This document shows positions 12,501 to 62,194 of a DNA stretch of 64,000 bases, piece after piece (positions within the stretch are counted from its first letter, which is position 1; every line of letters begins with the position of its first letter). Origin of the DNA: Deltaproteobacteria bacterium (GTDB lineage Bacteria; Myxococcota_A; Polyangia; GCA-2747355; JADLHG01); the NCBI GenBank assembly GCA_020848905.1, contig JADLHG010000054.1, positions 1 through 64,000 of the forward strand. The letters are read 5' to 3'. The notes under the pieces were generated by a model, which was given only the letters and a program-made list of their open reading frames with translations, did not search any database and was not told where the DNA came from. Both the position numbers and the translations under genes were made by a program.

Positions 12501-12798
12501 GGGCCTTTCCAGCGTGGCTACCCTCCGGCCGGACATGGTGAAGATCGACATGTCGCTCGTGCGAGACGTCCATCGCGCGGCTCTCAAGCGGGACATTATC
12601 GCTGGGCTCGTCGACACCGCGCGGCGGGCAGGGATCGTGGTGGTCGCCGAGGGCGTCGAGACCGTGGACGAGCGCGACACCCTCGTGACGCTCGGCTGTG
12701 ACCTCCTACAGGGGTATCTGTTCGCCAAGCCGGGGCCAGCATTTCCCGTTCCACGTACGAACTTCAGATCGGATCCTGCCGCGGCATCTGAAGGCTGA
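9565..12798 (+). CDS. multidomain REC-HisKA-HATPase-REC-pseudoREC-REC-EAL signalling protein (c-di-GMP phosphodiesterase output)
   Basis: N-terminal REC. H-box AHDFNN and ATPase boxes (DTGTGMD, GTGLGLA). Three further receiver-like domains, the middle one lacking the phospho-acceptor Asp. C-terminal EAL domain with QPIV, ExLxR, EVTE, DDLGEGYAG, KIDMS, EGVET and QGYLF motifs. GAGGAG Shine-Dalgarno upstream. Starts 4 nt after the response-regulator stop. Confidence 0.85.
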   Translation: MGKPLRALIVEDVEKDALLLVRELKRGGYDVTFERVDTADAMGDALARRTWDVVLSDYSMPTFSAPQALAVVKAHSLDLPFIIVSGTVNEDIAVAAIHAGAHDFMAKNKLQRLIPAIERERRNAAMRAEQATMQQQLLQSQRMEAMGQLAGGIAHDFNNILAVILSYATFVRDALPEGDERRADVVEVLKGADRAAGLTRQLLAFCRQQPAAARPTDLNESLTQLHKLLVRTLGDDIALSVLPSARPAVVRIDPVQFDQIVLNLAVNARDAMPGGGELRIVVRNDQDEEARPVVRLSVSDTGTGMDEATQRRIFEPFFTTKERGKGTGLGLATCFAIVEKVGGRIRVESAPGRGSQFTVDLPLCDEPAHDQGRDWDIPLPASGEAVLVVEDEPSLRRATARVLERAGYRVQVASDSLEAMRRIDALGDRLRVVVTDVVMPGASGVDVAAYVARTAPHCRVILTSGYLTDAVHRRQPEELPMLWKPVPPRDLLRAVAQAISEGTASERTRSTESPASRPGELVLVIDCDAPSRRAIVSALNTAGYRALEAEAVATARALVEGGAEPMWILCEQGLLHGDGEAQFLRWIEVDRPNLIERVLILSDRATNDGCSHGVRWREDLVISKPVDVSELLWRLVRTSADAPSRTEIGVPFGSSGDLAQQARAGGTLRRSDATGDNEGGRGHLRESVLVVEDDESLAGAVSRLLGGAGYEVLVAGLLADARSALAAKEFDVLVVDLGLPDGGGLDLVRELRGGRSDVPIVLMTASPSVDSAAEAIRWRVSEYLPKPFPPDDLLRVVRTTVDGGRMARVRNKLLAARFGGNEFVADLRGTEQAFLRALPKIWIAYQPIVRGGDGSLFGYEALLRCHEPDLASPLRLFAAAEVLGRVHEVGRAVRAVVASTMLEHRERLEAIFVNVHPSELRADVLADSAEALLPLARRVVLEVTERASLDRGAKLDEELAHIRGRGYRLAVDDLGEGYAGLSSVATLRPDMVKIDMSLVRDVHRAALKRDIIAGLVDTARRAGIVVVAEGVETVDERDTLVTLGCDLLQGYLFAKPGPAFPVPRTNFRSDPAAASEG

Positions 12799-13072: not shown

Positions 13073-16039
13073 CTACTTCTTCTCGCGCGGATAGGGCGGC
13101 TTGTACGGCCTGGAGATGGCGTGCACCTTGTCCGCCGCGAACTGCCGATCGACGCCGTGGCAGGAGGCGCAGGTCTCCTTCTCGTCACCGCTGTAGGGCT
13201 CCGCCGGCGTCGGATCGAAGGTGTTGAGCATGCCGTGCAAGATCGCGCTATCCCGGTCGTGGCAGGACAGGCACGCGAGGCGGCTCGGACGCTGCTTCCA
13301 GTAGTCGGCCTTGGCGTGGCAGGTGGTGCAGTTGCGGATGTCCTGAGGGAAGATGCGCGCGGCGAAGTTGACCGTCGGGTTGTAGGCGGGGGCCACCTCC
13401 AGCGGCTTGTCGAGGTAGTGTCCGTAGTGGACGCCGTGGACGCGGCGCGAGAGGGGCGCTGCGCCGAACCCGTTGTTCGAGTCGGAGTTCTTGGCCCACC
13501 CGGACCTGCCCTTGAGCTGCCGATCGTAGTCGTGGCAGGAGCGACACAAATCCGTGTCGAACTTCACGGCCCAGTAGTTCTCGTGGATCGCGGTGTTTGC
13601 GTGGCAGGAGGAGCAGTTCGTCGCGTTGTACTCATCGACGGCCTTTGTCCCCACCTGGAAGTTCAGCTTCGCCACACCGCCGCAGACGTGGCCGTCGGGG
13701 CAGGTGATGCCCGAGGGGACCATCTCCACGAAGGCGGTGTACGTGCCGGGGGCCAATCCCTTGACGTCATCGAGCTGGTACTCGACGAATCCGTTGGCAC
13801 CGGGGGTGCGCTTGACCTTGGGATCGTCGTCGCGCGGGTCGGCGGGGACGTTGAGATGGTTCGCCGGATAGGAGTCGGTCTCCACCGGCACCGCGATGCC
13901 CGCGGGAAACTCGAGCGCCGACCCCACGGTGCTGGCGAGGACCTCGACCGAGGAGGTCGCTCCTCTCGAGTTGCTCTTGATGGTCAGCGTCGGAGCGGCG
14001 CTGGACCCGGAGGCCGACGCCGTCGCCACGGCCTTGAACGTGGCGTTGGCGTTGAGCCAGGCCGCAGCCTCCGCCGCGGTCGCGGCCGCGAGGTTGGCAA
14101 AGGTCCCGGAGGAGATGGGGATGATGATGGCGGCCCCGCCGTCGATCTTTACCCGCAGGTCTGTCGTAGTGGAGAGACTCCAGGGGCCAGCCTTCTTGCA
14201 GGTGACCGCCGCGCGAATCATCGCCTCGCCTCGAGCCGCCGTGGTCAAGACCGGCATCGCCTGCTGCGAGCGTGGACCGCTGACGAAGAGGTTGAAGCGG
14301 AGCCAGGCGGGCGGCTTGATGGCGGTCGGGTCCGCGATCACTCCCTTGCTGTCCTTGAGCACGATCTTCACCGTCGGAGCCTCGCCCCCCACGTAATGCG
14401 TGCCGTTCGCCGGCGGCGTCATGCTGAGCTCGGCGGTAGGCTGGACGAGCGGCTCGATCTCGTGTGACTTCGCCACGGGCACGGTGCCGTTCGGGCCGTG
14501 GCAGTTCGCGCACGTGCCGTCGGTCTGCTTCCCGCCCAGGTGCACCGCGAGCTGGCACATCCCTGTCGTCGCGTTGCACGTGGATTCCTTGTTGAAGTCC
14601 GCGACGCAATCCGTGCTCTCCTTGCACTTGCCGGCCTTGGGACGTCCCTGTACGCGCGGTGGCGAGAGCACGCCGCTGGCTGCATCGAGGTTGTCGTGGC
14701 AGCTCGCGCAGGCCTGCGTCGAGGGCTTGGTCTTCCACGAGTCGTCGAGGTGGCACTTGGTGCAGTTGCGAGGATTGGCCGGAAAGCGGACGCCCGGGTT
14801 AGAGCCCACGCCGCCCTTGGCCTGGGAGGTGTAATCCCGGAAGTCACCCGTCACGGGATCGATGTTGAAGAGGCTGCTGAGGCCCCTCGTGGGCTCGCAC
14901 ACGTGGGCGGTTCCGGGTGCCCCGCAGCCCCCGCCCATGTGGACGCCGTGTACGCGCCGCACGATCGCGTCGGAGACTCGGTTTGTCGACTGGCAGGGGC
15001 TCTCACCCTGCTTGCCGCAGTAGGCGGCGTAGCCGTCCTGGTTGTGGCAGTTCTTGCAAGTGCGGACAGGATCGGAGTCGATGGCGTAGTTTCCGACGGC
15101 AGCGCCCTCGCGATCGATGTGGTGGAGGTAGGTCATGCCGCTGAGGGCGCCCTTGTGGCAATCGGCGCAGTTGCCGACGATCTCCTTCTCCACCGCGGCG
15201 GCGCCGAGCTGGAGCTCCTGAACCGGGAAGGCCTGGTCGATGGGAAAGTCCTTCGAGATCGCCCAGAAGCTCACCAGGTACGTCCCCGGCTCCTCGGTCG
15301 TGACGGGCTCGAGAGTGTAGGTCAGGACGTTCCCCTTCACCGCGAGGTTGGTCTTCACCGGCTTCTCGCAGGTGGTGGTGCCGCCCGCGGTGGCGCAGGT
15401 CCAGTCGGTTCCGCCCTTGGCGTCGGTCGCGGTCGAGGTGCACGTGTGCTTCGCCGCCGAAACGCTGCACTTCCAGGAATACGCGCCGCCCGGGGTGGGG
15501 AGTGCGGTGAGATCGACGAAGTGATGCTCGGTCGCGGTGCGCGCGGCGCTCACGTTGAGCAGCTTGGACGCCGTCTTCGCCTTCAGCGCGCTGTTCGGAC
15601 CCACCATCATGAGGCGGGCCTGGCTCAGGCCCTCGCGAGGAATCGGAGCGCCGGCCTCGTCGGTGACCGTGATGGTGATGACCGGCCTGTCACCGGGGAC
15701 GAAGTGCGTGCTGTTCGAGGGCTTGGAGACCTCGAGCTTGACCCGCAGCCCGGGGCTGAATCCGGCATTCATGCCATTGGTGCCGTTCGTCCCTGGCGCG
15801 CCGGCGGCGCCGGGGTCGCCCTTGGTCCCGGCGGCGCCGGGGTCACCCTTGGTCCCAGCGGCGCCGGGGTCGCCCTTTTCTCCGGACGTACCGGGCTCGC
15901 CCTTGGCGCCGGGCTCCCCCTTGCTACCGTCGCAGCTCCCGAGGAGACCGATCAACCCGGCCAGCAACACGACCCGGGCGGGCCCGGCCGCCGACCGCTT
16001 GTAGAACGCCAACAGTCCATCGGCCAAAGCTCTCGTCAT
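13073..16039 (-). CDS. lipoprotein decaheme c-type cytochrome with N-terminal collagen-like Gly-X-Y repeat
   Basis: Signal peptide with lipobox LLGSC. About 15 consecutive G-X-Y triplets (GEPGAKGEPGTSGEKGDPGAAGTKGDPGAAG...). Ten CXXCH heme-binding motifs: CADCH, CKNCH, CTKCH, CASCH, CANCH, CSSCH, CRSCH, CTTCH, CLSCH, CASCH. GGAGAG upstream of ATG 16039. Confidence 0.8.
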   Translation of the reverse strand: MTRALADGLLAFYKRSAAGPARVVLLAGLIGLLGSCDGSKGEPGAKGEPGTSGEKGDPGAAGTKGDPGAAGTKGDPGAAGAPGTNGTNGMNAGFSPGLRVKLEVSKPSNSTHFVPGDRPVITITVTDEAGAPIPREGLSQARLMMVGPNSALKAKTASKLLNVSAARTATEHHFVDLTALPTPGGAYSWKCSVSAAKHTCTSTATDAKGGTDWTCATAGGTTTCEKPVKTNLAVKGNVLTYTLEPVTTEEPGTYLVSFWAISKDFPIDQAFPVQELQLGAAAVEKEIVGNCADCHKGALSGMTYLHHIDREGAAVGNYAIDSDPVRTCKNCHNQDGYAAYCGKQGESPCQSTNRVSDAIVRRVHGVHMGGGCGAPGTAHVCEPTRGLSSLFNIDPVTGDFRDYTSQAKGGVGSNPGVRFPANPRNCTKCHLDDSWKTKPSTQACASCHDNLDAASGVLSPPRVQGRPKAGKCKESTDCVADFNKESTCNATTGMCQLAVHLGGKQTDGTCANCHGPNGTVPVAKSHEIEPLVQPTAELSMTPPANGTHYVGGEAPTVKIVLKDSKGVIADPTAIKPPAWLRFNLFVSGPRSQQAMPVLTTAARGEAMIRAAVTCKKAGPWSLSTTTDLRVKIDGGAAIIIPISSGTFANLAAATAAEAAAWLNANATFKAVATASASGSSAAPTLTIKSNSRGATSSVEVLASTVGSALEFPAGIAVPVETDSYPANHLNVPADPRDDDPKVKRTPGANGFVEYQLDDVKGLAPGTYTAFVEMVPSGITCPDGHVCGGVAKLNFQVGTKAVDEYNATNCSSCHANTAIHENYWAVKFDTDLCRSCHDYDRQLKGRSGWAKNSDSNNGFGAAPLSRRVHGVHYGHYLDKPLEVAPAYNPTVNFAARIFPQDIRNCTTCHAKADYWKQRPSRLACLSCHDRDSAILHGMLNTFDPTPAEPYSGDEKETCASCHGVDRQFAADKVHAISRPYKPPYPREKK
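15790..15930 (-). repeat. near-perfect tandem nucleotide repeats encoding the collagen-like G-X-Y tract
   Basis: Unit gcggcgccggggtc(a/g)cccttggtccc occurs three times in tandem on the plus strand. Confidence 0.6.
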
Positions 16040-16087
16040 CGTCAACTCTCCGGGGATAAGGGATGGGGTGGTGCGCGCCCGGCCTAA

Positions 16088-16103
16088 GCAGCTTGCGTGC
16101 CAA
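16088..16103 (-). promoter_or_regulatory. candidate sigma54 (-24/-12) promoter for the decaheme cytochrome gene
   Basis: Minus-strand TTGGCACGCAAGCTGC has GG and GC at the consensus spacing of TGGCACG-N4-TTGCW. It lies about 50 nt upstream of ATG 16039 and next to a sigma54 activator gene. Confidence 0.4.
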
Positions 16104-16271
16104 TGCCGCAGCCTGCGATATCGCTGAGGAACGAGCAGCCGCGGGGCCGAGATGTCGCACGGCACCGGCGTAGCCGGAGTAGGCGCGCCAAAAATATTAT
16201 TCTTTATCGCGGCGTTAACTTGCAGCCGAAATGTCGGCCGCCTCCGGGCGAAAGGTCGGCCCCCTGGCGGC

Positions 16272-19490: not shown

Positions 19491-21179
19491 ATGCACAACC
19501 TGCAGATCTTGATGACCTTCGCTGTCGGGCTCGCTGCGGCCCTCATCCTCGCCTATGTCGCGCACAGGCTGAAGCTCTCGCCCATCGTGGGCTATCTGCT
19601 CGCTGGCATCGCCGTGGGCCCCTTCACGCCGGGGTTCGTGGCCGATCGGCTCGCCACGGAGCAATTCGCCGAGATCGGCGTCATTCTGCTCTTGTTCGGG
19701 ACCGGGCTGCGTTTTCATCTGCGCGAGCTGATCGCGGTCTGGCGCGTGGCGGTGCCAGGGGCCTTGCTTCAGAGCGCCGCCTCGAGCATCGCCCTCGCGC
19801 TGCTCCTGTTGGCGCTGGGATGGAGCTGGAGCGCCGGGCTGCTGCTCGGGATGGCGATCTCGGTCGCCAGCACCGTCGTCATGGTTGTGGTGCTGGCCGA
19901 CCGTGGAGACCTCGACGGCCCCATCGGTCACCTCGCGGCAGGCTGGACCGTGGTTGAAGACCTCATCACGGTCGCGCTGCTGCTCGTGCTGCCCATCATC
20001 GTCTTGCGCGAGAGTGGAGGACAGGGTGTCTGGGTACCGCTCGGGCTGACGGCACTCAAAGTCATGGCACTGGTCGCGGCGGTCGTCGTGCTCGGCCGGT
20101 GGATCATCCCGTGGGCCCTGGAGCGCGTCGCACGGACCCGCTCGCGCGAGCTCTTCACGCTCGCCGTGCTCGTCGTCGCGGTCGGCATCGCGGTGGGCGC
20201 TGCACGAGTGTTCGGGGTCTCGGTCACGCTCGGCGCCTTCATGGCCGGACTGGCCGTTGGACGCTCCGAGTTCGCCGCCCGAGCGGCTGGCGACGCGGTA
20301 CCCATGCGCGACGCCTTTGCCGTCCTCTTCTTCGTCTCGGTCGGCATGCTCTGCGATCCACGCGCCCTCGTCGAGGCACCGCTGCTCACTTTGGCGGTGC
20401 TGGCAGTCGTGGTCGGGGGCAAGCCGCTCGCCGCGCTGGCAACGATGCGGCTCCTGAGACGGCCCATGACGATCGCCGTTCCGGTCGCAGCGGCGCTCGC
20501 CCAAGTCGGTGAGTTCAGCTTTATCCTCTGCTCCTTGGCCAGGGAGCTGGGATTGCTCGGCGGCGCCGGCTGGAACGCCATGGTGGCTGCGTCCATCATC
20601 TCCATCGCCGTCAATCCGTCCTTGTACCGTTGGGCCCGTCGGCTGGCGGGCAGAGCCGGAAACCTGATCGGCGACGACGTGCGACGAGGAGTCGTCGATC
20701 CGCGGAGCTGCATCCTGGTGGGCTACGGCCCGGTCGGCAGCACGGTCCATCGGCTCCTCGCTGAACGGGGCGCCGCCGTGACCGTCATCGAGCTCAACCT
20801 CGACACCGTCCGCCGGCTGAGAGAACAGGGGGTCGCCGCAATCTACGGCGACGTGCTTCGGCCGGGGGTCCTCGAAGCTGCGGGCATCGCCACCGCTGGA
20901 AGCTTGATCCTGAGCGCGGACGTCGAAGACGCTGAGGAGGTGATTCGTCAGACACGCAGCGCAAACCCCGGCCTGCGGGTGCTGGTGCGCTGTACCCACC
21001 TCCGTGACGTCGCGTCTCTACGACACGCTGGAGCGTCGGTTGTCGCTGCCGGGGAAGCGGAGGTCGCGGTGGCCTTGGCCGAGGCGGTGTCCGTCGTCAG
21101 TGGAACAGGCGAGGGTTGGCAGCGAGAGGACATCAGACGCCGCCTCTACGACGAGGGACCGCCCCTCGGTGGAGCATAG
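19491..21179 (+). CDS. Kef-type K+/H+ antiporter (CPA2 membrane domain plus C-terminal RCK/TrkA-N domain)
   Basis: About 12 TM helices, then Rossmann motif GYGPVGSTV. GGAGAG before ATG 19491. The track ORF begins upstream at 19422. Confidence 0.85.
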   Translation: MHNLQILMTFAVGLAAALILAYVAHRLKLSPIVGYLLAGIAVGPFTPGFVADRLATEQFAEIGVILLLFGTGLRFHLRELIAVWRVAVPGALLQSAASSIALALLLLALGWSWSAGLLLGMAISVASTVVMVVVLADRGDLDGPIGHLAAGWTVVEDLITVALLLVLPIIVLRESGGQGVWVPLGLTALKVMALVAAVVVLGRWIIPWALERVARTRSRELFTLAVLVVAVGIAVGAARVFGVSVTLGAFMAGLAVGRSEFAARAAGDAVPMRDAFAVLFFVSVGMLCDPRALVEAPLLTLAVLAVVVGGKPLAALATMRLLRRPMTIAVPVAAALAQVGEFSFILCSLARELGLLGGAGWNAMVAASIISIAVNPSLYRWARRLAGRAGNLIGDDVRRGVVDPRSCILVGYGPVGSTVHRLLAERGAAVTVIELNLDTVRRLREQGVAAIYGDVLRPGVLEAAGIATAGSLILSADVEDAEEVIRQTRSANPGLRVLVRCTHLRDVASLRHAGASVVAAGEAEVAVALAEAVSVVSGTGEGWQREDIRRRLYDEGPPLGGA

Positions 21180-50982: not shown

Positions 50983-51657
50983 ATGCGCCAGGGCGGGATG
51001 CAGCTCCGTCGCGCCATCGTGCTCGCGTTCGTGCTGGTCGGCTGGGCCGGCCCGGCGCTGGCTCGCCAGGTCGAGAACCTCGAGACACGCTACCCGCGTG
51101 GCGAGTCGATCGGCGTGGGCGCGGGCAAGGAGGTCTTCGCCGTGGTGGGGCGGCCGGAGCTCGCGCTCGTCGTGGCGCGCATGCACCCCTGGGCGCTCGA
51201 CCACTGGAAGCAGGAGCTACGGCTGCAGAAGGTCTTCGCGCGGCTCGGCTTCCCCGTGGTGGAGGTGCTGGAACTCGGGAAGAGCGGCGACGGCCGTCCG
51301 GCGATGGTCCAGCCCCGCTACGCGATGGGGACCAAGGACTACTGCGTGCGCGGAGGACGGCGTCTGGTCAGCGCGCGCACGGCGAGTGACTGGGCCCGAC
51401 TGCTCGAGCTCGGCGAGCGCCACGGGATCTGGCCGCAAGACCCGCAGGGGCTGCTCGGCTTCGACGGCTCGCTCGTGCTGGCCGACTTCGGCTACGGGCT
51501 GAACATCTGGGGACGCGGTTCCCCGGAGCGGGAGGCGGCGCTGCAGGAACTTCGTTCGTCGGGCTCCCAGCCGCCACGGATCGACGGAGGCCGTCCGTAC
51601 GTGCTCCAGCTCTACGGCCTCATGCTGGCGGACGTCACTCCGCCGGCTCCACGCTGA
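50983..51657 (+). CDS. secreted hypothetical protein with kinase-like motifs
   Basis: Signal peptide. IGVGAGKEVFAV ... HGIWPQDPQ ... LADFGYG. Confidence 0.45.
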   Translation: MRQGGMQLRRAIVLAFVLVGWAGPALARQVENLETRYPRGESIGVGAGKEVFAVVGRPELALVVARMHPWALDHWKQELRLQKVFARLGFPVVEVLELGKSGDGRPAMVQPRYAMGTKDYCVRGGRRLVSARTASDWARLLELGERHGIWPQDPQGLLGFDGSLVLADFGYGLNIWGRGSPEREAALQELRSSGSQPPRIDGGRPYVLQLYGLMLADVTPPAPR

Positions 51658-53269: not shown

Positions 53270-56248
53270 GTGGAGCACAACATCCTTCTCGCGGGCGTGG
53301 GGGGGCAGGGCATTCTCTCGATCGCGCAGGCCATCTCGGGGGCAGCGCTCCGGCGCGGGCTCGAGGTGCGCCAGGCCGAGCTGCACGGCATGAGCCAGCG
53401 CGGCGGCGTGGTGCAGGCGCACCTCCGCATCGCCGACCACGTGCTGCACAGCGACCTCATCCCCGCGGGGCGCGCCGACCTCCTCATCTCCGTCGAGCCG
53501 CTCGAGGCGCTGCGCTACGTGCACCTGCTCGCCGACGGGGCGTCGCTCGTCTCGAGCGTCAACGCCTTCGTCAACCTCACGGGCTATCCGGCCGTCGAGG
53601 GGCTGCTCGCGCGACTCGCGGCGCATCCGCGCCACGTGCTCATCGACGCCGAGCGCCTCGCGCGGGCGGCCGGCTCGGGGCGCGCGGCCAACGTCGTGCT
53701 CCTTGGCGCGGCCTCGCTCTTCGTCGAGCTCGCCGCGGACGAGCTCGAGGCGGCGGTGGCCGGGCTCTTCGCCGAAAAGGGGGGCGCGCTGGCTGAGGCC
53801 AACCGGCGGGCCTTTCGCTTCGGCCGCCACGCGGCGCGCACCTACCTCGACGGCGTGGCCCGCGGCGCGAGCTCGGCCGCGGTGCGCCACTTCATCGAGA
53901 CCCTCTCCCCCGAGCACCTCGCCGCGGCCGAGCGCCCCGACGAACCGGTCTTCCCCGTCGAGCCCTTCGAGGAGCGGCTCTCGGGGGCCGAGGAGCACGC
54001 GGTGGCCCTGTCGCTCAAGGCCGCGCTGGCGGAGGGCCGCACGCAGCTCTTCGAGCACGAGGTCTACACCATCGTGCAGCTCGTGGGGGCCATCGCGCCG
54101 CCCGAGCACCTCTTCGTCAGCCACCACGAGCTCCCCACCGACGAGGCGCTGGCGCAGCTCCCGGGCGACCAGGTGGTGCTGAAGGTCGTCTCTCCGGAGG
54201 TGGTGCACAAGAGCGACGCCGGCGGAGTCGTCTTCGTGCGCAAGGACGGCGACGTCGTACGCGCCGCGCTCGACCGACTCTTCGCGCGTCACGCCGAGGC
54301 GGACGTGAGGGGGGTGCTGATCGTCGAGCGCGTGCCCCAGGCTGCCGCGGGTCTCGGGAGCGAGCTCTTCGTCGGACTGCGGGCCACGCGCGAGTTCGGC
54401 CCCGTGCTCGCGGCGGGGCTCGGCGGGCTCGATACCGAGTACCTGGCGCAGAAGATGCGCCCCGGGCTGGCGGTGGCCAAGGCCCTGGCGAGCGAGGTCA
54501 CGGCCGAGGAGTTTCTGACCCTCTTTCAGCGGACGGCGGCCTACGAGCTGCTGGCGGGGCGCGTGCGCGGGCACGAGCGGTTGGTCGGCGACGGAGAGCT
54601 CGTGCGCTGCTTCCGCGCCTTCCTGCTCCTCGCCCGCCACTTCGCCACCGCGCGCGACGAGGGGCCGTCGCTCGTCGAGCTCGAGGTGAACCCCTTCGCC
54701 TTTCGCCACGCGCGGCTCGTACCGCTCGACGGGCGGGGACGCCTCGGGACCGCGGCGCGCGCCAAAACGCCCAGGCCGCGGCAGAAGCTCCGCGCGCTCC
54801 TCGAGCCCGGGCGCGTCGGAGTGATAGGCGTCTCGAGCTCCGCCGCGAGCTTCGGCCACATCATCCTCTCCAACGTGCAGCGGGCGGGTTTTCCGCGCGA
54901 GCGGCTCACGGTGATCAAGCCGGGGGTCACCGAGCTCGACGGCGTGGCCTGCGTACCGAGCCTGACGGCTCTCGAGGAGCCCGTCGATCTCCTGGTGGTC
55001 GCGGTGGGAGCCGAGCAGCTCCCGGCGATCGCGAAGGAGGTGGTGGAGAGCGGCAAGGTCCAGTCGGCGATTCTCATCCCGGGGGGGGCCGGCGAGACGA
55101 AGGGGAGCGAGGCGCTGGCCGAGGAGCTGCGGCGGATCGTGGCCTCAGGTCGCGCGCGTCCCGACGGGGGCCCGCTCTTCCTCGGGCCGAACAGCCTGGG
55201 GGTCGTCTCGCGCCCCGGCCGCTACGATACGTTCTTCGTGCCCGAGAGCCGCATGGACAAGCGCTTCGAGGCGCGGGCGCGTCCCGTCGCACTCGTCTCG
55301 CAGAGCGGGGCCTTCATCGTCAGCCGCCTGAGCAACCTGGAGACGCTCGACCCGGCCTTCGCCATCTCGATCGGCAACCAGCTCGACCTGACGCCGGCCG
55401 ACCTGCTCTCGGCTCTCGCGGAGCGCAGCGACGTGAAGGTCGTGGCGATCTACGCCGAGGGCTTCGGCGACGAAGAGGGGCTAGAGCTGGTGCGGGAGAT
55501 CGACGCCGCCACGCGGCGGGGCACGCAGGTGCTCTTCTACAAGGCCGGGCGCACGGCCGAGGGGCGCAGCGCGGCCGCGGGGCACACGGCGTCGGTGGCC
55601 GGCGACTACGACGTCTGCACCGCCGCCGCGACCGAAGCGGGGGCGCTCGTCACGGACACCTTTCGCGAGCTCGAGCAGCTCCTCGAGCTCTGCGCGTTCC
55701 TCTGTGACAAGCGGCCCGCGGGGACGGCGCTCGGTGCGATCTCGAACGCCGGCTTCGAGGCGGTGGGGATCGCCGACGCGCTCGTCGGACCGCGGTGGCA
55801 GCTCACCTTGCCCACGCTAGCGGCCGGGACGATGGAGGCGCTGCGCGCGGCCCTCGAGCTACACGGCCTGACGCGGCTCGTGACGCCCAGGAATCCGCTG
55901 GACCTCACCCCGATGGCCACCGACGCCGCGTACGAGGCGGCGGCGCGCGCCTTCCTCGCCGACCCCGGTCTCGACGCGCTGGTGGTCGGGATCGTGCCGC
56001 TCACGGCCACCCTGAAGAGCGTGCCCGGAGAGCTCGCCTCCGAGGAGAGTCTGGCCCGCCGCCTGCCCGCGCTGCTCGCCGGCTCGGACAAACCGCTCGT
56101 GGCGGTGGTGGACGCGGGGCCCCGCTACGAGCCGCTCGTCTCGGCGCTACGCGCGGGAGGCGTCCCGGTCTGTCGCTCGGCGGATCAGGCGATCCGTTCG
56201 GTGGGCCGCTACCTCACGCAGCATCAGACCGTCTGGAGCCGGCGCTGA
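53270..56248 (+). CDS. fusion of an IorB-like gamma/beta subunit with NDP-forming acyl-CoA synthetase domains (ATP-grasp plus CoA-binding/ligase-CoA)
   Basis: N-terminal about 190 aa MEHNILLAGVGGQGILS (pyruvate/ketoisovalerate-OR gamma-like). Middle ATP-grasp segment (VVLKVVSPEVVHKSDAGGVVF). C-terminal CoA-binding Rossmann segment (RVGVIGVSSS...PGGAGET). GTG start. Confidence 0.75.
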   Translation: MEHNILLAGVGGQGILSIAQAISGAALRRGLEVRQAELHGMSQRGGVVQAHLRIADHVLHSDLIPAGRADLLISVEPLEALRYVHLLADGASLVSSVNAFVNLTGYPAVEGLLARLAAHPRHVLIDAERLARAAGSGRAANVVLLGAASLFVELAADELEAAVAGLFAEKGGALAEANRRAFRFGRHAARTYLDGVARGASSAAVRHFIETLSPEHLAAAERPDEPVFPVEPFEERLSGAEEHAVALSLKAALAEGRTQLFEHEVYTIVQLVGAIAPPEHLFVSHHELPTDEALAQLPGDQVVLKVVSPEVVHKSDAGGVVFVRKDGDVVRAALDRLFARHAEADVRGVLIVERVPQAAAGLGSELFVGLRATREFGPVLAAGLGGLDTEYLAQKMRPGLAVAKALASEVTAEEFLTLFQRTAAYELLAGRVRGHERLVGDGELVRCFRAFLLLARHFATARDEGPSLVELEVNPFAFRHARLVPLDGRGRLGTAARAKTPRPRQKLRALLEPGRVGVIGVSSSAASFGHIILSNVQRAGFPRERLTVIKPGVTELDGVACVPSLTALEEPVDLLVVAVGAEQLPAIAKEVVESGKVQSAILIPGGAGETKGSEALAEELRRIVASGRARPDGGPLFLGPNSLGVVSRPGRYDTFFVPESRMDKRFEARARPVALVSQSGAFIVSRLSNLETLDPAFAISIGNQLDLTPADLLSALAERSDVKVVAIYAEGFGDEEGLELVREIDAATRRGTQVLFYKAGRTAEGRSAAAGHTASVAGDYDVCTAAATEAGALVTDTFRELEQLLELCAFLCDKRPAGTALGAISNAGFEAVGIADALVGPRWQLTLPTLAAGTMEALRAALELHGLTRLVTPRNPLDLTPMATDAAYEAAARAFLADPGLDALVVGIVPLTATLKSVPGELASEESLARRLPALLAGSDKPLVAVVDAGPRYEPLVSALRAGGVPVCRSADQAIRSVGRYLTQHQTVWSRR

Positions 56249-56371
56249 CCGCGCGCCTCGGCCTTCACAAGACGATCGGCTCGTTCCGTGCCGGGCCCTA
56301 CACGGTCGTTCACGCCGGTCGATGAAGGGTACGGTCCTCGTTTCGTCCGTTACCTCTCGAGGAGGCCGCCC

Positions 56372-56983
56372 GTGCACGTCGATCCGGACTTCTTGCCCCT
56401 CATCGTGGGATTCTCACCCGACGCGCTAGAACGCCAGGAGGGCGCGATCTACGGGCTGTGGGGTGATCTGCGCCTGGCCTACTTCAACGGCAGCTACGAA
56501 CGCTTCGCCGCGGCGAACGAGGGACGCCGGATGCTCGACGCCTGGCCGCTCGGTCGCTCGGTGCTGGACGCGGTGGCCGAGCCCCTCGTGTCCTTCTACC
56601 GCGAGCTCTTCGGGCAGACGCTCGTCTCGGGCCAGCCGCGCTCCCACGAGTACGAGTGTCCGAGCCCGACGCTGCGGCGGACCTTCCGCATGGACGTGTA
56701 CCCGGTGACGCGGAAGGAAGGCCTGCTCGTGGTGAACAGCCTCCTCGTCGAGGCGCCGCACGCCGGGGACGGAGAGCCGGCGGGTCCGCGCGAAACCTAC
56801 CGCACCGCGGACGGACTCATCGTGCAGTGCGCCCACTGCCGGCGCACCCGGCTCGGGCGAAACGACGACGTCTGGCACTGGGTCCCGGCCTTCGTGCGGA
56901 CCCCGCCCGAGGAGACGAGTCACGGGCTCTGCTACCCGTGTTTCGCCCACCACTACCCTGAGCCCGAGGAGGGCGACGCGTAG
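56372..56983 (+). CDS. hypothetical protein with C-terminal Cys/His cluster
   Basis: GTG start with GAGGAGG 5 nt upstream. CAHC...CYPC motif. Its 3' end overlaps the convergent methyltransferase gene by about 30 nt. Confidence 0.4.
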   Translation: MHVDPDFLPLIVGFSPDALERQEGAIYGLWGDLRLAYFNGSYERFAAANEGRRMLDAWPLGRSVLDAVAEPLVSFYRELFGQTLVSGQPRSHEYECPSPTLRRTFRMDVYPVTRKEGLLVVNSLLVEAPHAGDGEPAGPRETYRTADGLIVQCAHCRRTRLGRNDDVWHWVPAFVRTPPEETSHGLCYPCFAHHYPEPEEGDA

Positions 56984-58557
56984 GGCCTGAAGTCGCGCCC
57001 GAGCAGCGCGACGAGCGACGGGACCGGCACGCGTCCGAGCTCGCGCGGCTCGAGCTTCTGCAGGCCGCCGCCGTAGACGCGCCCCTCCCCTTGTAGCGCC
57101 TGTGGGTCGAGGGCGCGGAGCGCGCTCCAGAGCTCTCGACCGAGGCCGGGTCGGCGGGCGAGCTCCGCGGCCAGCGCGGGTCGGGGGTAGAGGAGCAGGT
57201 AGACGTTCGGCACCGTGGCGAGCGAATGGTTGAGCAAGAAGCGGAACGGTCGGCGCTCGCCGTGTCGCACGGCCGCGCCGCGGCCCATGTACGTGCACAC
57301 GATGGGGGCGGGGAGGCGCTGCTCTTGCGCGTACCAGGGGCGGCGGTGCCGGCAGAGGTAGCGTGACGCCGCGCGGGCCTTGCCCTCCTCGAGGTAGCGG
57401 TAGAGCGCGCGCGAACGGCGCCTCACCTCCTCGAGCGACCACGCGCAGTCGAGGAGCACGAGCCGCGGCGTGACGAGGGGTGCGCCCGTCGCGTCCGCGG
57501 CGATCTCGTCCAGCTCGCCGAGAAAGCGGGGGCCCGGCAGGATCGGGCGCAACACTTCCGGGGGCAGGCCCAGCGCGCGCGCGCGTTCCGCCTCCAGGAT
57601 GAAGTAGCGGTTGTCGCCCGTGGCGATTCCCCGACGGACCTCGAAGAGCTCCGCGAGCCGCGGGGTGTGGTCGGCGACGCTCGATCGAGGCGCCTGCCCG
57701 AGGCGCGGCCACTTGTCCGCGCGCGCGAGCTCCTCCGCCGACGCGTCCAGCCGCGCGGAGGGCCGGGCGAGCGAGTCCCCTTCGGTGAGCTCCACCCGAT
57801 GCCCCGCGCCCGGCGGCTCCTTGCGGTAGGCCAGCACGGCCGAGGTCACCAGCGCATCGCCGAACTGTTCTTCGTCCGGGCGGAAGCGATGCAGGCGGAG
57901 CAGCGTGACGCGCTCGGCCAGGTACCGCCTGAGCGGCGCCCCCCAGGCCACCTCGCAGACCTCCGCGGGCAGAAGCCACACGGCGACTCCGCCGTCGCGC
58001 AGCCATGGATCGGCCAGCCCCACGAAGTAGCCGTAGAGCCCCGCGAGCCCGCCGAGCCGCATCCCCGAGGCCGCCTCGCACCGTCGCCGGAGCCGCGTCT
58101 TGTCCGCTGCGGACAGGTGGTGGTGGCGCGAGTAGGGCGGGTTGCAGACGAGGAGGTTCGCGCGCTCGGCCTCTCGCGTCGGCGCGGTACGCCGCGTGAA
58201 GTCTCCCTGCACGAGCTCGAGCGCGCTCCGTCGCCACAGCCGTGCCGCGGGCCCGGCGTAGTGCGCGTCGCGCTCCACCCCGCGGGCCCAGGCGATGCGC
58301 GGCGGCTCGAGCTGCGCGCGCAGCGCCTCGTAGAAGGCCCCCGTGCCGAAGGCCGGGTCGAGAAAGCGCACGCGCGGCCCAGGCGGCAGCCACGCGAGCC
58401 CGAGTCGCACCACCTCGCGCGCCAGGCCGGGCGGCGTGGCGAACTGCCCGAGCCGGTTACGCTCGGTCGCGCTCTTACGCCCGTCGAGCTCGGCCTGCAG
58501 CGCGAGCCGTCCCCCGTCGACGCCGCTCCCCTCCCTTCTCGGCGTGCCTGTCCGCAT
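56953..58557 (-). CDS. Eco57I-family N6-adenine DNA methyltransferase
   Basis: FATPPGLAREVV, DPAFGTGAF (SAM motif I), NPPY (motif IV), and a C-terminal TaqI-C-like region. 534 aa. No adjacent nuclease or restriction partner recognised. Confidence 0.75.
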   Translation of the reverse strand: MRTGTPRREGSGVDGGRLALQAELDGRKSATERNRLGQFATPPGLAREVVRLGLAWLPPGPRVRFLDPAFGTGAFYEALRAQLEPPRIAWARGVERDAHYAGPAARLWRRSALELVQGDFTRRTAPTREAERANLLVCNPPYSRHHHLSAADKTRLRRRCEAASGMRLGGLAGLYGYFVGLADPWLRDGGVAVWLLPAEVCEVAWGAPLRRYLAERVTLLRLHRFRPDEEQFGDALVTSAVLAYRKEPPGAGHRVELTEGDSLARPSARLDASAEELARADKWPRLGQAPRSSVADHTPRLAELFEVRRGIATGDNRYFILEAERARALGLPPEVLRPILPGPRFLGELDEIAADATGAPLVTPRLVLLDCAWSLEEVRRRSRALYRYLEEGKARAASRYLCRHRRPWYAQEQRLPAPIVCTYMGRGAAVRHGERRPFRFLLNHSLATVPNVYLLLYPRPALAAELARRPGLGRELWSALRALDPQALQGEGRVYGGGLQKLEPRELGRVPVPSLVALLGRDFRPYASPSSGSG

Positions 58558-58613
58558 CGCCGCCCGACTCTAGGTGTTCGCCGCGAAATAACCAGCGCAT
58601 TCCGCGGTGGGCC

Positions 58614-59093
58614 CTACGTGCGAGCGCTCTTCACCTCTACCACGCGCAGCCTCGGCGTTCCGGCTGCGTCTTCGGGTGCGGCCCCCGCGGCCGCGAGCAA
58701 CGTTCCTTGATCGGTCTCGGCCTCGGGACGTCGGCGCCGGGACCGCGTCCCCGGCTGGGGGCTCGCCTCGCTCCGCGGCCCTCTATCGGAGGGGCGCAGC
58801 GCCAGGGCGGCCACCTTCTCGGCCAGGGCCGGGTCTCCCTCGGCGTACACCCGCGCGTAGGCCAGGGCGCGCGCGGCGTGCTGCTCGAGCGCGGCCTGCG
58901 CGGCGGCCACGGCTTCGGTCGCCGCGGCGAGATGCGTCTCGAGCTCGCGCTGCTCCCCGGTCGCTCGCTGCAGCGCCTCCTCGGCGCGCTGCAGGCTGGC
59001 CTGGCTCACGTCGGGGAAGGCGACGGCCGACAGCTCCTCGTCGAAGAGTGTCAGCACCCTTCGCACTCCCTTGGGGACGGGGTCTTCGAGCAT
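58614..59093 (-). CDS. hypothetical coiled-coil protein upstream of the methyltransferase
   Basis: 159 aa from ATG 59093, with GAGAGGG upstream. Ala/Glu-rich. Confidence 0.35.
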   Translation of the reverse strand: MLEDPVPKGVRRVLTLFDEELSAVAFPDVSQASLQRAEEALQRATGEQRELETHLAAATEAVAAAQAALEQHAARALAYARVYAEGDPALAEKVAALALRPSDRGPRSEASPQPGTRSRRRRPEAETDQGTLLAAAGAAPEDAAGTPRLRVVEVKSART

Positions 59094-59265
59094 CACGGGC
59101 CCTCTCGGTTGCGGCAACGAAACGGTCTTGGAGACTGCTTGTCCGTATCGTTATGAACAAGTGTTCAGTATCCGTCAAGCCCGCATTCGCGATCGAACGC
59201 AGGTTGCGTCGAGGCCGGCCGGGCTCCGGGGCAACGGGGCGGGCGGCCGGGCGGTCGATCCTGGC

Positions 59266-60432
59266 GTGCGGTGCATCCCTCGCGGTGCCGTCTGCCTGGC
59301 CGTGTCGATCGGAGCGCATGCTCTGGTGCTGCCGGTGCTCGCCTGGACCGACTGGAGCGCGCGCAGCGCGGTGGGATCTTCCGGCCGGTCGCTTTCCTCG
59401 GTGGTGGAGCTCGAGCGCGTTCCGGCGCAGACGGTACCGGGAGAGGTGCGCCCCGTCACGTCGCAGCGGCTCCCGACGCCGAGGCGCCCCGTCACGCGGC
59501 GGGGTCTCGACCTCCGGAGCCGCGTTTCCTCGGGCGCGCGCGGTGCGGGGCCACGCACGCGCGACCAGGTCGAGCCTGCCGGGGTTACGCCCTCCCCCGC
59601 CGAGGGTACGCCCGCCGCCCTCCCGGCTCCTTCCGGCCTGTTGCGGATGCGGTCGCGGCTCGAGCTCGCTCCGTCGCTCGAGGCGCTTGCCGAGCTGCCC
59701 CGTCGGGCCCACCCGGCGCAGGCCGATCCTCTGTCGGGCCGGAGCGCGTCCGGGTCGGCCACCTCGTCTGCCGCGACGCGCGCCGCGCTAGCCGAGCGGG
59801 TCAGGCGCCTCCTCGCGACGGATCTGGCGCAGCATCACGCGCGGTCCGGGCGCGTGTCGCCGCGCCTCTTCGAGGTAGCTCGTCGCGCGGACCAGCTCTT
59901 CACCGTCGACTGGGAGCTCGTCCGGGGAGATCGCGCGCACCTCGGGTCGATCAAGCGTGGGCTCGCCTCCTTCGTCTACGGCATCTGGGACGGCTGGCAG
60001 AAGGCGCTGGGCGCGCAGTCCAGGTCGCACCGCGAGGCCAGGGGTGCGGTCGAGGCGCCGCAGCGGCTCGAGGCCTACGCGGCGGCGGCGGAGGCCGCGG
60101 CCGAGCGCGCCGACGAGCTCCGGGCTACCTACTGCATCGAGACCGACGGGCGGGAGGTCCGGCTGACCCTGGCCTCGCGCTCCGGGCGGCGTCCCTTCGA
60201 CCGCATCGCCGAGCGGGCCCTGCGCACCGCGCTGCGGCTCGAACCGGAGGGGAGCCCCCCGCTGCCCGCTGCCTGCTATCGCTTCACGGCGCGCTTCCAC
60301 CGCGTGCCGCCGTTGCCGTACGTCGGCTGCAGCTTCGACGAGGTGCTGCTGAAGGCGGCCTGCTTCTACCCGTTGAAGCGGATCCTGCGGACGAACGTCG
60401 AGCTGGTGAGCGCAGCGCCGTCCACCGAATGA
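59266..60432 (+). CDS. hypothetical membrane-anchored protein
   Basis: GTG start chosen to avoid overlap with the divergent upstream gene. Single N-terminal TM (AVCLAVSIGAHALVLPVLAW), then Pro/Arg-rich linker. Start uncertain. Confidence 0.35.
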   Translation: MRCIPRGAVCLAVSIGAHALVLPVLAWTDWSARSAVGSSGRSLSSVVELERVPAQTVPGEVRPVTSQRLPTPRRPVTRRGLDLRSRVSSGARGAGPRTRDQVEPAGVTPSPAEGTPAALPAPSGLLRMRSRLELAPSLEALAELPRRAHPAQADPLSGRSASGSATSSAATRAALAERVRRLLATDLAQHHARSGRVSPRLFEVARRADQLFTVDWELVRGDRAHLGSIKRGLASFVYGIWDGWQKALGAQSRSHREARGAVEAPQRLEAYAAAAEAAAERADELRATYCIETDGREVRLTLASRSGRRPFDRIAERALRTALRLEPEGSPPLPAACYRFTARFHRVPPLPYVGCSFDEVLLKAACFYPLKRILRTNVELVSAAPSTE

Positions 60433-60464
60433 GCTCGGTCGGCATTCGCTCGGGTGGGATGAGG

Positions 60465-60556
60465 CGGAGAGAGAGGGATTCGAACCCTCGGTGGGGATTT
60501 AAAGGCCCCACACTCGCTTAGCAGGCGAGCACCTTCGGCCTCTCGGTCATCTCTCC
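60465..60556 (-). tRNA. tRNA-Ser (anticodon GCT)
   Basis: 92-nt minus-strand cloverleaf: acceptor GGAGAGA/TCTCTCC, anticodon loop CTGCTAA, long variable arm (TGGGG-CCTTTAAAT-CCCCA), T-arm GAGGG-TTCGAAT-CCCTC, discriminator G, then CC. Confidence 0.85.
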
Positions 60557-60673
60557 ATTCAAGTCCGGGGGCCCGTGCGCGCGGCCCGAAAACCTCTATC
60601 GCGCGAGCCAAACCCCCCGACATCTAGCCGACCCGGCCCCAAAAAACAAGACCTCACTCGGATCCGCCTTGCG

Positions 60674-62194
60674 TCAGTCCAGCTTGATCCGCGCGTAGTC
60701 GAGCGTCGTGCGCCGTTCGTGAATCTCGCGTCGCCCTGTCCGGCGCTCCACCTGCTGCCGCAGCTTGGGAAAGAAGCGGAGCAGGTCGTCGGCCCGGAGT
60801 ACCGCGGGCAACGGCTTCGTCTCCTCGGTCAGGACGACCCCCATCGAGGCCCCGGCGTCCAGGTTGCCGTGGAAGCCGTGCCGGGCCGACTCGTCCACCC
60901 CAGTGATCGTGCGAAACCCGCGCGAGGCGTACGGGCGCTTGAAGGCGAAGACGACGTCCGCGGGGTACTTGATGCCCACCGGCAGGAGCGCCGTGCGTGC
61001 CCGGTAGATGACGTCAGGGAACGGGCTCCGGGCGCCCGCGGAGTAGAGCGCCTCGTCCGTGACCTCGAGGTATTTCCTGCCGTCCGCGACATGCTCCCGG
61101 CCGGTCACGTTCTTGATCCCCAGCGCTGCGAGGTCGTGCCCCTCGGGCAGGTAGTAGGCGTTGGTCCCCGCGTGGTGCGCGCCGTGCAGCGGGCGCTTCC
61201 CCGCCACCCACACGCTGAACCACTGCAGCTCTCCTGCCGGATCGAACTCCCGATCGGGGCGCGAGCGCGACACGACCGCCTCGGCGTAGGGGCTCTGCGA
61301 GAGCCGCTCCGCGACGTCGTCGGCGAGCGCCAGCTCCGTGTGCAGTGAGACGTAGCTGACGGGGGTGTGCAGGATGGGGACCGCGTACGGGCCCGCCTCC
61401 CGTCGCCCCTCCGCGAAGGAGTCCACCACGCGCACCTGCGCTTGCTCCATGACGTGCCGGATGTCGATGAAGTCCCCCGGCGCGGCGGGCACGAAGTCCA
61501 TTCCGTGATCCGACACGAGCGTGAAGACGAACCGCTGCGCGGGGTGGTCGCGGCGAAACTTCTCGATACGACGCCAGAGCTCGAGGAAGGCGACCTTCAC
61601 GTGCGCAGCCGGCCGCATGTGGCCCATCACGTCGATGTCGAGGACGTAGCCCACGAAGACGGGGTTGTGTCGCACGCGCCCGCCCAGCACGTAGAAGAGG
61701 TTGTCGAGCGACTCCATCAGACTGAGCTCGAGCGAGCCGTAGCTCCACACGGCGTCGAAGTACCCATCTGCGTGGTAGTCGAAGACCTTCAGGTAAGGTG
61801 GCCCCTCCCAGGGGGTGCCGCGGAGCGGGGGGATGCCGTGCGAGATGAGACCCGTGTAGCCCACGTTCTGCAGCGCGTCCTTCTCCGGGTTGAAGTAGTG
61901 CAGCTCGTAGCCGTTCATGCGCTCGGTGCGCAGGATGCGGCTCCAGGCGATGTCGGAGGTGCTGGGGAAGGTGGAGACGAACTGCACCGCCTGCCAGCCC
62001 TGCGAGGGGATCTGCCCCGCGGCCATCGACTCGGTGACGGTCTTGAAGGCCAGGCCATCCACGGCCAGGTAGACGTGGACCACGGGGTTCTTCTTCGGGT
62101 CGCCGTCGACCGGAAGGCTGTTCATGAAGGCGTAGTGCTCCCAATCGCAGGCCCCGAGGAGCAGCAGGGCGCCCGCGAGCGCGACGCCGCGCAT
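60674..62194 (-). CDS. alkaline-phosphatase-superfamily lipoprotein (type I phosphodiesterase/nucleotide pyrophosphatase-like)
   Basis: Lipobox LLLGACD. Metal-ligand-like DxH and HG motifs (VSDHGMDF). GGAGGCG Shine-Dalgarno. Start is 15 nt after the OMP stop. Confidence 0.6.
   Translation of the reverse strand: MRGVALAGALLLLGACDWEHYAFMNSLPVDGDPKKNPVVHVYLAVDGLAFKTVTESMAAGQIPSQGWQAVQFVSTFPSTSDIAWSRILRTERMNGYELHYFNPEKDALQNVGYTGLISHGIPPLRGTPWEGPPYLKVFDYHADGYFDAVWSYGSLELSLMESLDNLFYVLGGRVRHNPVFVGYVLDIDVMGHMRPAAHVKVAFLELWRRIEKFRRDHPAQRFVFTLVSDHGMDFVPAAPGDFIDIRHVMEQAQVRVVDSFAEGRREAGPYAVPILHTPVSYVSLHTELALADDVAERLSQSPYAEAVVSRSRPDREFDPAGELQWFSVWVAGKRPLHGAHHAGTNAYYLPEGHDLAALGIKNVTGREHVADGRKYLEVTDEALYSAGARSPFPDVIYRARTALLPVGIKYPADVVFAFKRPYASRGFRTITGVDESARHGFHGNLDAGASMGVVLTEETKPLPAVLRADDLLRFFPKLRQQVERRTGRREIHERRTTLDYARIKLD

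Follow-up and report, generated by a model that had tools for sequence, protein, structure and literature searches.

What is an adenine methyltransferase doing in a genome when no restriction endonuclease lies beside it? The question is raised by a 64,000-nucleotide stretch of DNA from a deltaproteobacterium (contig JADLHG010000054.1 of assembly GCA_020848905.1, positions 1 to 64,000), referred to here as the window, in which positions 56,372 to 60,556 hold a solitary N6-adenine methyltransferase (MTase) gene among functionally unassigned neighbours. A first-pass annotation had left two options open: an orphan or regulatory enzyme, or the methylating component of a defence module, not yet characterised, formed with those neighbours. 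Our analysis favours the first. The gene probably encodes an orphan type II gamma-class N6-adenine MTase that descends from a XamI-type restriction-modification (R-M) system and whose endonuclease was lost or never co-acquired. The enzyme is, judged from its sequence, probably still active. The MTase gene and its landmarks are as follows.

56953..58557, minus strand: gamma-class N6-adenine MTase of 534 residues (P0001), from the open reading frame (ORF) and a PADLOC model
58339..58359, minus strand: motif I, DPAFGTG, residues 67-73, S-adenosylmethionine (SAM) binding; columns invariant in the family
58132..58143, minus strand: motif IV, NPPY, residues 139-142, catalytic; from the sequence and the family alignment
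57940..57969, minus strand: substitution cluster at residues 197-206, PSEFMDVNYG to PAEVCEVAWG, from the family alignment
57674..57675, minus strand: site of an inter-strain indel of 51 nt, in frame, after residue 294, from the strain comparison

The protein aligns from end to end with PDLC03328, a PADLOC model for type II MTases (E = 9e-117), and a search of 5.8 billion proteins returned approximately 5,000 homologues of about 525 residues that carry the Pfam domains PF07669 (Eco57I) and PF22837 (M_Eco57I_C). The second of these domains is assigned to the window MTase itself in a precomputed annotation. The first scores 19.4 bits, below its gathering cut-off of 25.3. Homologues at 50% identity pass that cut-off and the PDLC03328 match is strong, and the shortfall therefore reflects divergence of the window MTase rather than membership of another family. 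Motif I is followed by motif IV and then by a C-terminal domain at residues 300-520; with this motif order and a two-domain fold the enzyme is of the gamma class (Eco57I-like or M.TaqI-like). The first-pass annotation had read motif I as FxGxG. The motif is present, and strictly it is A-x-G-x-G, with a family consensus of DPAIGTG. Likewise, the earlier label of Eco57I family is correct at the level of the Pfam domain and hides the specific family, which is that of the methylases of XamI-type type II systems. The closest homologues are 50-57% identical and, the window protein itself apart, none of the 5.8 billion proteins exceeds 57%.

An AlphaFold model built with an alignment of 21 family members has a pLDDT of 82.3. 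Searching with this model in Foldseek returned M.BseCI (E = 2e-22), CamA (4e-22), and M.TaqI (about 1e-15 to 2e-15), with TM-scores of 0.65-0.70 for M.BseCI and CamA; M.BseCI is also the best sequence match in the PDB. M.BseCI (PDB 7qw5, site ATCGAT, TM about 0.65) and M.TaqI (site TCGA) share the two-domain fold and the NPPY motif with the window MTase, but are just 17-18% identical to it and come from functional R-M pairs with other sites. CamA, the orphan N6-methyladenine MTase of Clostridioides difficile (PDB 7lt5), has the same fold class (TM about 0.69) and is also solitary. However, it is only 14% identical, has an asymmetric site, and is conserved species-wide with a sporulation phenotype, whereas the window MTase is recorded only in two near-identical strains. 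Dam and CcrM resemble the window MTase in being solitary adenine MTases in a chromosomal, non-mobile context. They differ in belonging to the alpha and beta classes and in being kept across whole bacterial classes, and the family of the window MTase, unlike them, is otherwise endonuclease-linked and horizontally mobile.

Evidence for the origin of the enzyme comes from the loci of its relatives. Methylases of XamI-type systems have the same length and motif order as the window MTase, are 50-57% identical to it over their full length, and are normally paired with the endonuclease RE_XamI (PF09572). RE_XamI is a PD-(D/E)XK type II endonuclease of patchy distribution (PMC3424549), and a literature search for XamI specificity found only that PD-(D/E)XK census to mention the family. 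We fetched 80 metagenomic MTase loci with the family alignment and scored them by tblastn; 68 were informative, having at least 1 kb of upstream sequence. A full-length XamI-family endonuclease gene lies directly upstream of the MTase gene in 56 of the 68. Nine others, representing approximately six independent events, retain only a 3' stub of the endonuclease gene beside an intact MTase gene (L090, L091, L102, L105, L119, L122, L127, L128, and L130); the stub spans residues 289-320 in L090 and L091 and residues 152-320 in L122 and L128. The last three (L093, L120, and L147) have no XamI endonuclease gene. Full-length, truncated, and absent endonuclease genes thus stand side by side, as snapshots of R-M decay within one family.

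Individual relatives give the same picture. In each of the four contexts read for a Tepidimonas-type homologue (P0012), an RE_XamI gene precedes it by 2 nt, and the methylases adjacent to RE_XamI are 50-53% identical to the window MTase over more than 94% of its length. Members of the family occur on plasmids of cyanobacteria, Deinococcus, Psychrobacter, Acinetobacter, and Corynebacterium, and one copy, on a Psychrobacter plasmid, has an annotated XamI family restriction endonuclease as its neighbour. A phage origin was considered and set aside, with no homologue found in 50,697 phage records. The window MTase itself has neither an adjoining endonuclease nor one elsewhere in the window: tblastn with RE_XamI against the whole 64 kb found no match, trace, or remnant, and the interval of the MTase block is filled by four ORFs with no unassigned coding space. 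The earlier statement that no restriction partner can be recognised is borne out, and the orphan option gains from the contrast between this absence and the partner found upstream in most homologous loci.

In a neighbour-joining tree the window MTase pairs with L147/P0053, which is likewise solitary, and the pair is nested among endonuclease-linked clades. This nesting implies that the window MTase is a solitary derivative of a mobile R-M family rather than an ancient housekeeping methylase. L147/P0053 overlaps aroA by 4 nt on a contig that also carries acnB-like and FYDLN_acid genes, and the contig is probably alphaproteobacterial. A vertically inherited clade of orphan methylases was ruled out on account of this alphaproteobacterium-like context of the sister copy.

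XamI is an isoschizomer of SalI, and its site is GTCGAC. From the family and the predicted fold we infer the following scheme for catalysis, specificity, and biological role. The N-terminal Rossmann domain would bind SAM through motif I, and the target adenine would be flipped into the NPPY pocket. Site recognition would fall to the C-terminal M_Eco57I_C domain, with GTCGAC the most likely sequence by analogy with XamI/SalI systems, and the palindrome would be methylated on both strands. Lacking an endonuclease, the enzyme would not restrict incoming DNA; it would more likely mark the chromosome and protect it from XamI/SalI-type endonucleases carried by mobile elements. A regulatory role, as for other orphan MTases, may also be envisaged.

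Several observations weigh against this interpretation. Of 176 columns with a conservation of 90% or more, 21 are changed in the window MTase, more than in any other of the 83 family members compared (median 3, 95th percentile approximately 9, and 12 for the solitary L147). Sixteen of the 21 fall in the catalytic half, including those that turn PSEFMDVNYG into PAEVCEVAWG, and changes at conserved columns of this kind could mean reduced activity or altered specificity. The match to PF07669 is, as described above, under its gathering score. GTCGAC is possibly the target, a specificity carried over from the partner family's name at approximately 50% identity. Site counts do not help in either direction: GTCGAC occurs 22 times in the window against 40.7 expected (observed/expected, O/E, 0.54), a value inside the range of 24 unrelated high-GC loci (0.19-1.03, pooled 0.74), and avoidance of GTCGAC as a footprint of past restriction was dropped for that reason. 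Finally, the view covers 64 kb of the genome, so an unlinked endonuclease could lie elsewhere. Among palindromic hexamers, the most under-represented in the window is CAGCTG, the PvuII site (7 against 26 expected, O/E 0.27), which is likewise low in unrelated high-GC loci (O/E 0.45).

The substitutions lead to the best surviving alternative, in which the gene is a decaying relic: after endonuclease loss the MTase would have come under relaxed selection and become catalytically weak or dead. In favour of a relic are the record number of changed conserved columns, the cluster of six substitutions in the near-invariant PSEFMDVNYG segment, and a length polymorphism between strains. The polymorphism comes from a second strain, L062 (ENA ERZ27258500), which is 99.2-99.6% identical to the window and has the same gene order. 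Its MTase has 17 extra residues after residue 294 (51 nt, L062 positions 2593-2643); the window protein has the normal length for the family, and it is L062 that carries the insertion. The details of both the polymorphism and the sequence speak against decay. The indel is in frame and falls in the disordered linker between the catalytic and target-recognition domains (pLDDT below 50 at residues 289-295) of a protein that is otherwise confidently modelled. Neither strain has a frameshift or stop codon in the MTase ORF, motifs I and IV are kept, and 155 of the 176 conserved columns are retained. Between the strains the MTase shows six synonymous and three non-synonymous codon differences, which suggests continued constraint, although these are small counts. 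Divergence after endonuclease loss is compatible with relaxed or with altered selection alike, and taken together we consider a relic unlikely. The two strains, 99% identical, share the MTase in the same context, and the nearest genomes, whose IorB is 61-63% identical, have none of this neighbourhood.

The remaining alternatives involve the flanking genes. The genes of the block described in the first-pass annotation are all present, with coordinates that were exact or a few bases off. Besides the MTase they are as follows, listed together with two LexA-box-like sequences recorded in the present analysis.

56298-56314, plus strand: second LexA-box-like sequence, CTACACGGTCGTTCACG, two mismatches, from the consensus match
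56372..56983, plus strand: 203-residue Cys/His protein; ORF with a GTG start and AGGAGG 6 nt ahead
58614..59093, minus strand: 159-residue helical protein, a context gene; ORF
59152..59168, minus strand: LexA (SOS)-box-like candidate operator, CTGAACACTTGTTCATA, from the palindrome and consensus match
59266..60432, plus strand: 388-residue protein with an N-terminal hydrophobic anchor; NCBI model IT371_23290
60463..60556, minus strand: tRNA-Ser(GCT), 3' end toward the block

The 203-residue gene converges on the MTase gene with an overlap of 31 bp. The 159-residue gene lies upstream of the MTase gene on the same strand, with a gap of 56 nt, and diverges from the 388-residue gene across a 172-nt spacer; the tRNA gene follows the stop codon of the 388-residue gene by 30 nt. 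Codon composition at third positions (GC3) is host-like in all four ORFs (0.87-0.91, with 0.91 for the MTase) in a window of approximately 70% GC whose real reading frames have GC3 values of 0.86-0.94.

A perfect palindrome of 14 nt, TGAACA-N2-TGTTCA, lies in the divergent spacer and occurs nowhere else in the window. As written on the minus strand it reads CTGAACACTTGTTCATA and sits 59-75 nt before the start of the 159-residue gene, between TTGACG and CATAAC. The SOS box of Myxococcus xanthus is CTRHAMRYBYGTTCAGS (PMC9705874), which CTGAACACTTGTTCATA matches at 15 of 17 positions. Related boxes precede homologues of the 159-residue gene, as ACTGAACATCTGTGCACA in two Archangium-like lineages and as CTG(A/G)TTGTATGTTCAGC in two Polyangiaceae-like lineages (L065, 4935-4951; L150, 1444-1460; L063, 4833-4849; L152, about 1490-1506). 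These carry three to four mismatches, and the background rate at three mismatches or fewer is 0.05 per 200 nt in the same loci. The 388-residue homologue has no LexA-like box upstream, and a LexA-like match at 20199-20216 in the window lies inside a transporter gene and was taken as chance. The 159-residue family is thus, from its upstream sequences, plausibly SOS-regulated. The second box, CTACACGGTCGTTCACG, lies 58-74 nt upstream of the 203-residue gene, as far from the start codon as in the case of the 159-residue gene; the 203-residue homologue in L149 has no upstream intergenic region.

On this basis the MTase could be a domesticated regulatory enzyme, possibly damage-inducible, that shares a transcript with the 159-residue gene. 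A LexA-controlled promoter would drive this transcript, and methylation would vary with the SOS response. The boxes recur before the homologues in at least three other lineages, the spacer between the two genes folds no more stably than expected (z = 0.22), and scans of 56000-60800 for sigma-70 promoters and intrinsic terminators found no matches. With no terminator-like structure between the genes, read-through into the MTase may occur. Orphan MTases of the same fold can also regulate, CamA being among the top structural matches. The comparative evidence points the other way: the box belongs to the 159-residue family and the gene downstream differs in every lineage, which makes the MTase look like a passenger, and within its own lineage the relatives of the MTase are the two near-identical strains only. 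The local intergenic regions of the block contain no GTCGAC. We regard a domesticated regulator as improbable. A more specific version, in which an orphan GTCGAC-type MTase was acquired behind a LexA-controlled gene encoding a small Myxococcota protein that may bind DNA, and chromosomal adenine methylation rises with SOS induction, seems to us a long shot; if it were true, the methylation would be a damage-inducible epigenetic mark and not an R-M leftover.

The neighbours themselves give little sign of belonging with the MTase. The 203-residue protein was correctly described earlier as a Cys/His-cluster protein; its family, which numbers 1,159 cluster representatives, has five invariant cysteines (C96 and C-x2-C...C-x2-C). 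The model of the protein (pLDDT 93.7) shows a PAS fold at the N-terminus and a Cys4 zinc ribbon at the C-terminus and is not that of a nuclease. The 159-residue protein is short and helical with a basic tail. Its family has approximately 80 detected members, including Archangium and Polyangiaceae in the Myxococcota, which share the conserved helix RALAYARVYAE and mostly carry an AT-hook-like RRGRPxK as well; the flanking genes differ in all five other lineages in which homologues were placed, and none is an MTase. The 388-residue protein, membrane-anchored as the first reading had it, is confined to its lineage apart from two remote homologues, both in other contexts. Searches of Pfam, NCBIfam, and PADLOC returned no match for any of the three proteins, and no homologue of any of them lies next to an MTase homologue in any MTase locus examined. 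The remote-homology check proposed for these three proteins thus yielded families that are all independent of the MTase.

The proposal that these genes form an uncharacterised defence module with the MTase is not supported, since they never accompany MTase homologues, their own homologues occur in contexts free of MTases, and none resembles a known defence component in PADLOC. Multi-gene systems of the MADS, BREX, or DISARM type were also rejected: matches of the MTase to mad2 (PADLOC, E = 1e-9) and MADS2 are limited to the generic catalytic domain, and the latter is far under its cut-off (17 against 720 bits). A functional R-M or defence system with a nuclease encoded elsewhere or hidden among the neighbours has in its favour the partial view of the genome, two proteins (388 and 159 residues) of no assigned function, and the somewhat low GTCGAC count, and is very improbable given the independence and folds of the neighbours, the generic MADS2 match, and a depletion that is not distinctive. 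The 203-, 159-, and 388-residue genes and the tRNA-Ser gene are, as we read their sequences, ordinary host genes that flank the MTase by chance.

The surroundings of the orphan MTase are equally unremarkable in terms of mobility. No integrase, transposase, or defence gene was found among the approximately 40 window ORFs scanned, the block holds no second copy of 14 nt or more from the 3' part of the tRNA-Ser and no att-like repeat was seen, and repeat searches for island boundaries found nothing. GC content is host-like (0.70-0.76) with no compositional anomaly, and the earlier judgement that this is not a classical island with an integrase agrees with all of these results. An empty site was sought in a scan of genome contigs with the flanking fusion of IorB and acyl-CoA synthetase (ACS), which gave 57 loci, all at 63% identity or less and none with any of the neighbours, and so yielded no empty site for comparison. 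That fusion protein (53270-56248, plus strand, 992 residues) joins subunit B of an indolepyruvate/pyruvate ferredoxin oxidoreductase (POR) to an ADP-forming ACS with ATP-grasp_5, CoA_binding_2, and Succ_CoA_lig domains, and is conserved at 50-63% identity mainly in metagenome-assembled genomes of Planctomycetota. The scanned ORFs otherwise include GST, LarA-like, PLD, SPFH, multihaem cytochrome, TetR, MerR, Ser/Thr kinase, MsrA, HlyD, and IorA proteins.

Three further features of the window were recorded in passing. A 1030-residue protein (13073-16165, minus strand) combines collagen-like repeats with multihaem cytochrome domains of the MtrC/MtrF type. A 219-residue gene (50998-51657, plus strand; 8660-9319 in L062) is labelled PF26324 (HopBF1_kinase) in the precomputed annotation of the sister strain, and the window ORF, scanned against Pfam, had no match at E values up to 0.001. 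A 92-nt tRNA-Arg(CCT) called by ARAGORN at 12488-12579 (plus strand) scores under the gathering threshold of the Rfam tRNA model and is probably a false positive.

Overall, the MTase is best annotated as an orphan methylase of the XamI R-M family and not as a candidate for a new defence module, and the locus has little import beyond that. At least one solitary MTase is present in 48% of surveyed prokaryotes (PMC4752239), and with solitary type II methylases in about half of such genomes the window MTase is a further case of a known situation. Regulatory orphans are marked in that survey by promoter sites that stay reproducibly unmethylated. A link to the SOS response, if true, would make the locus an unusual example of DNA methylation that is inducible, and is at present a weak lead. 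For the family as a whole, the survey of loci provides a clean, small example of type II systems decaying to solitary methylases.

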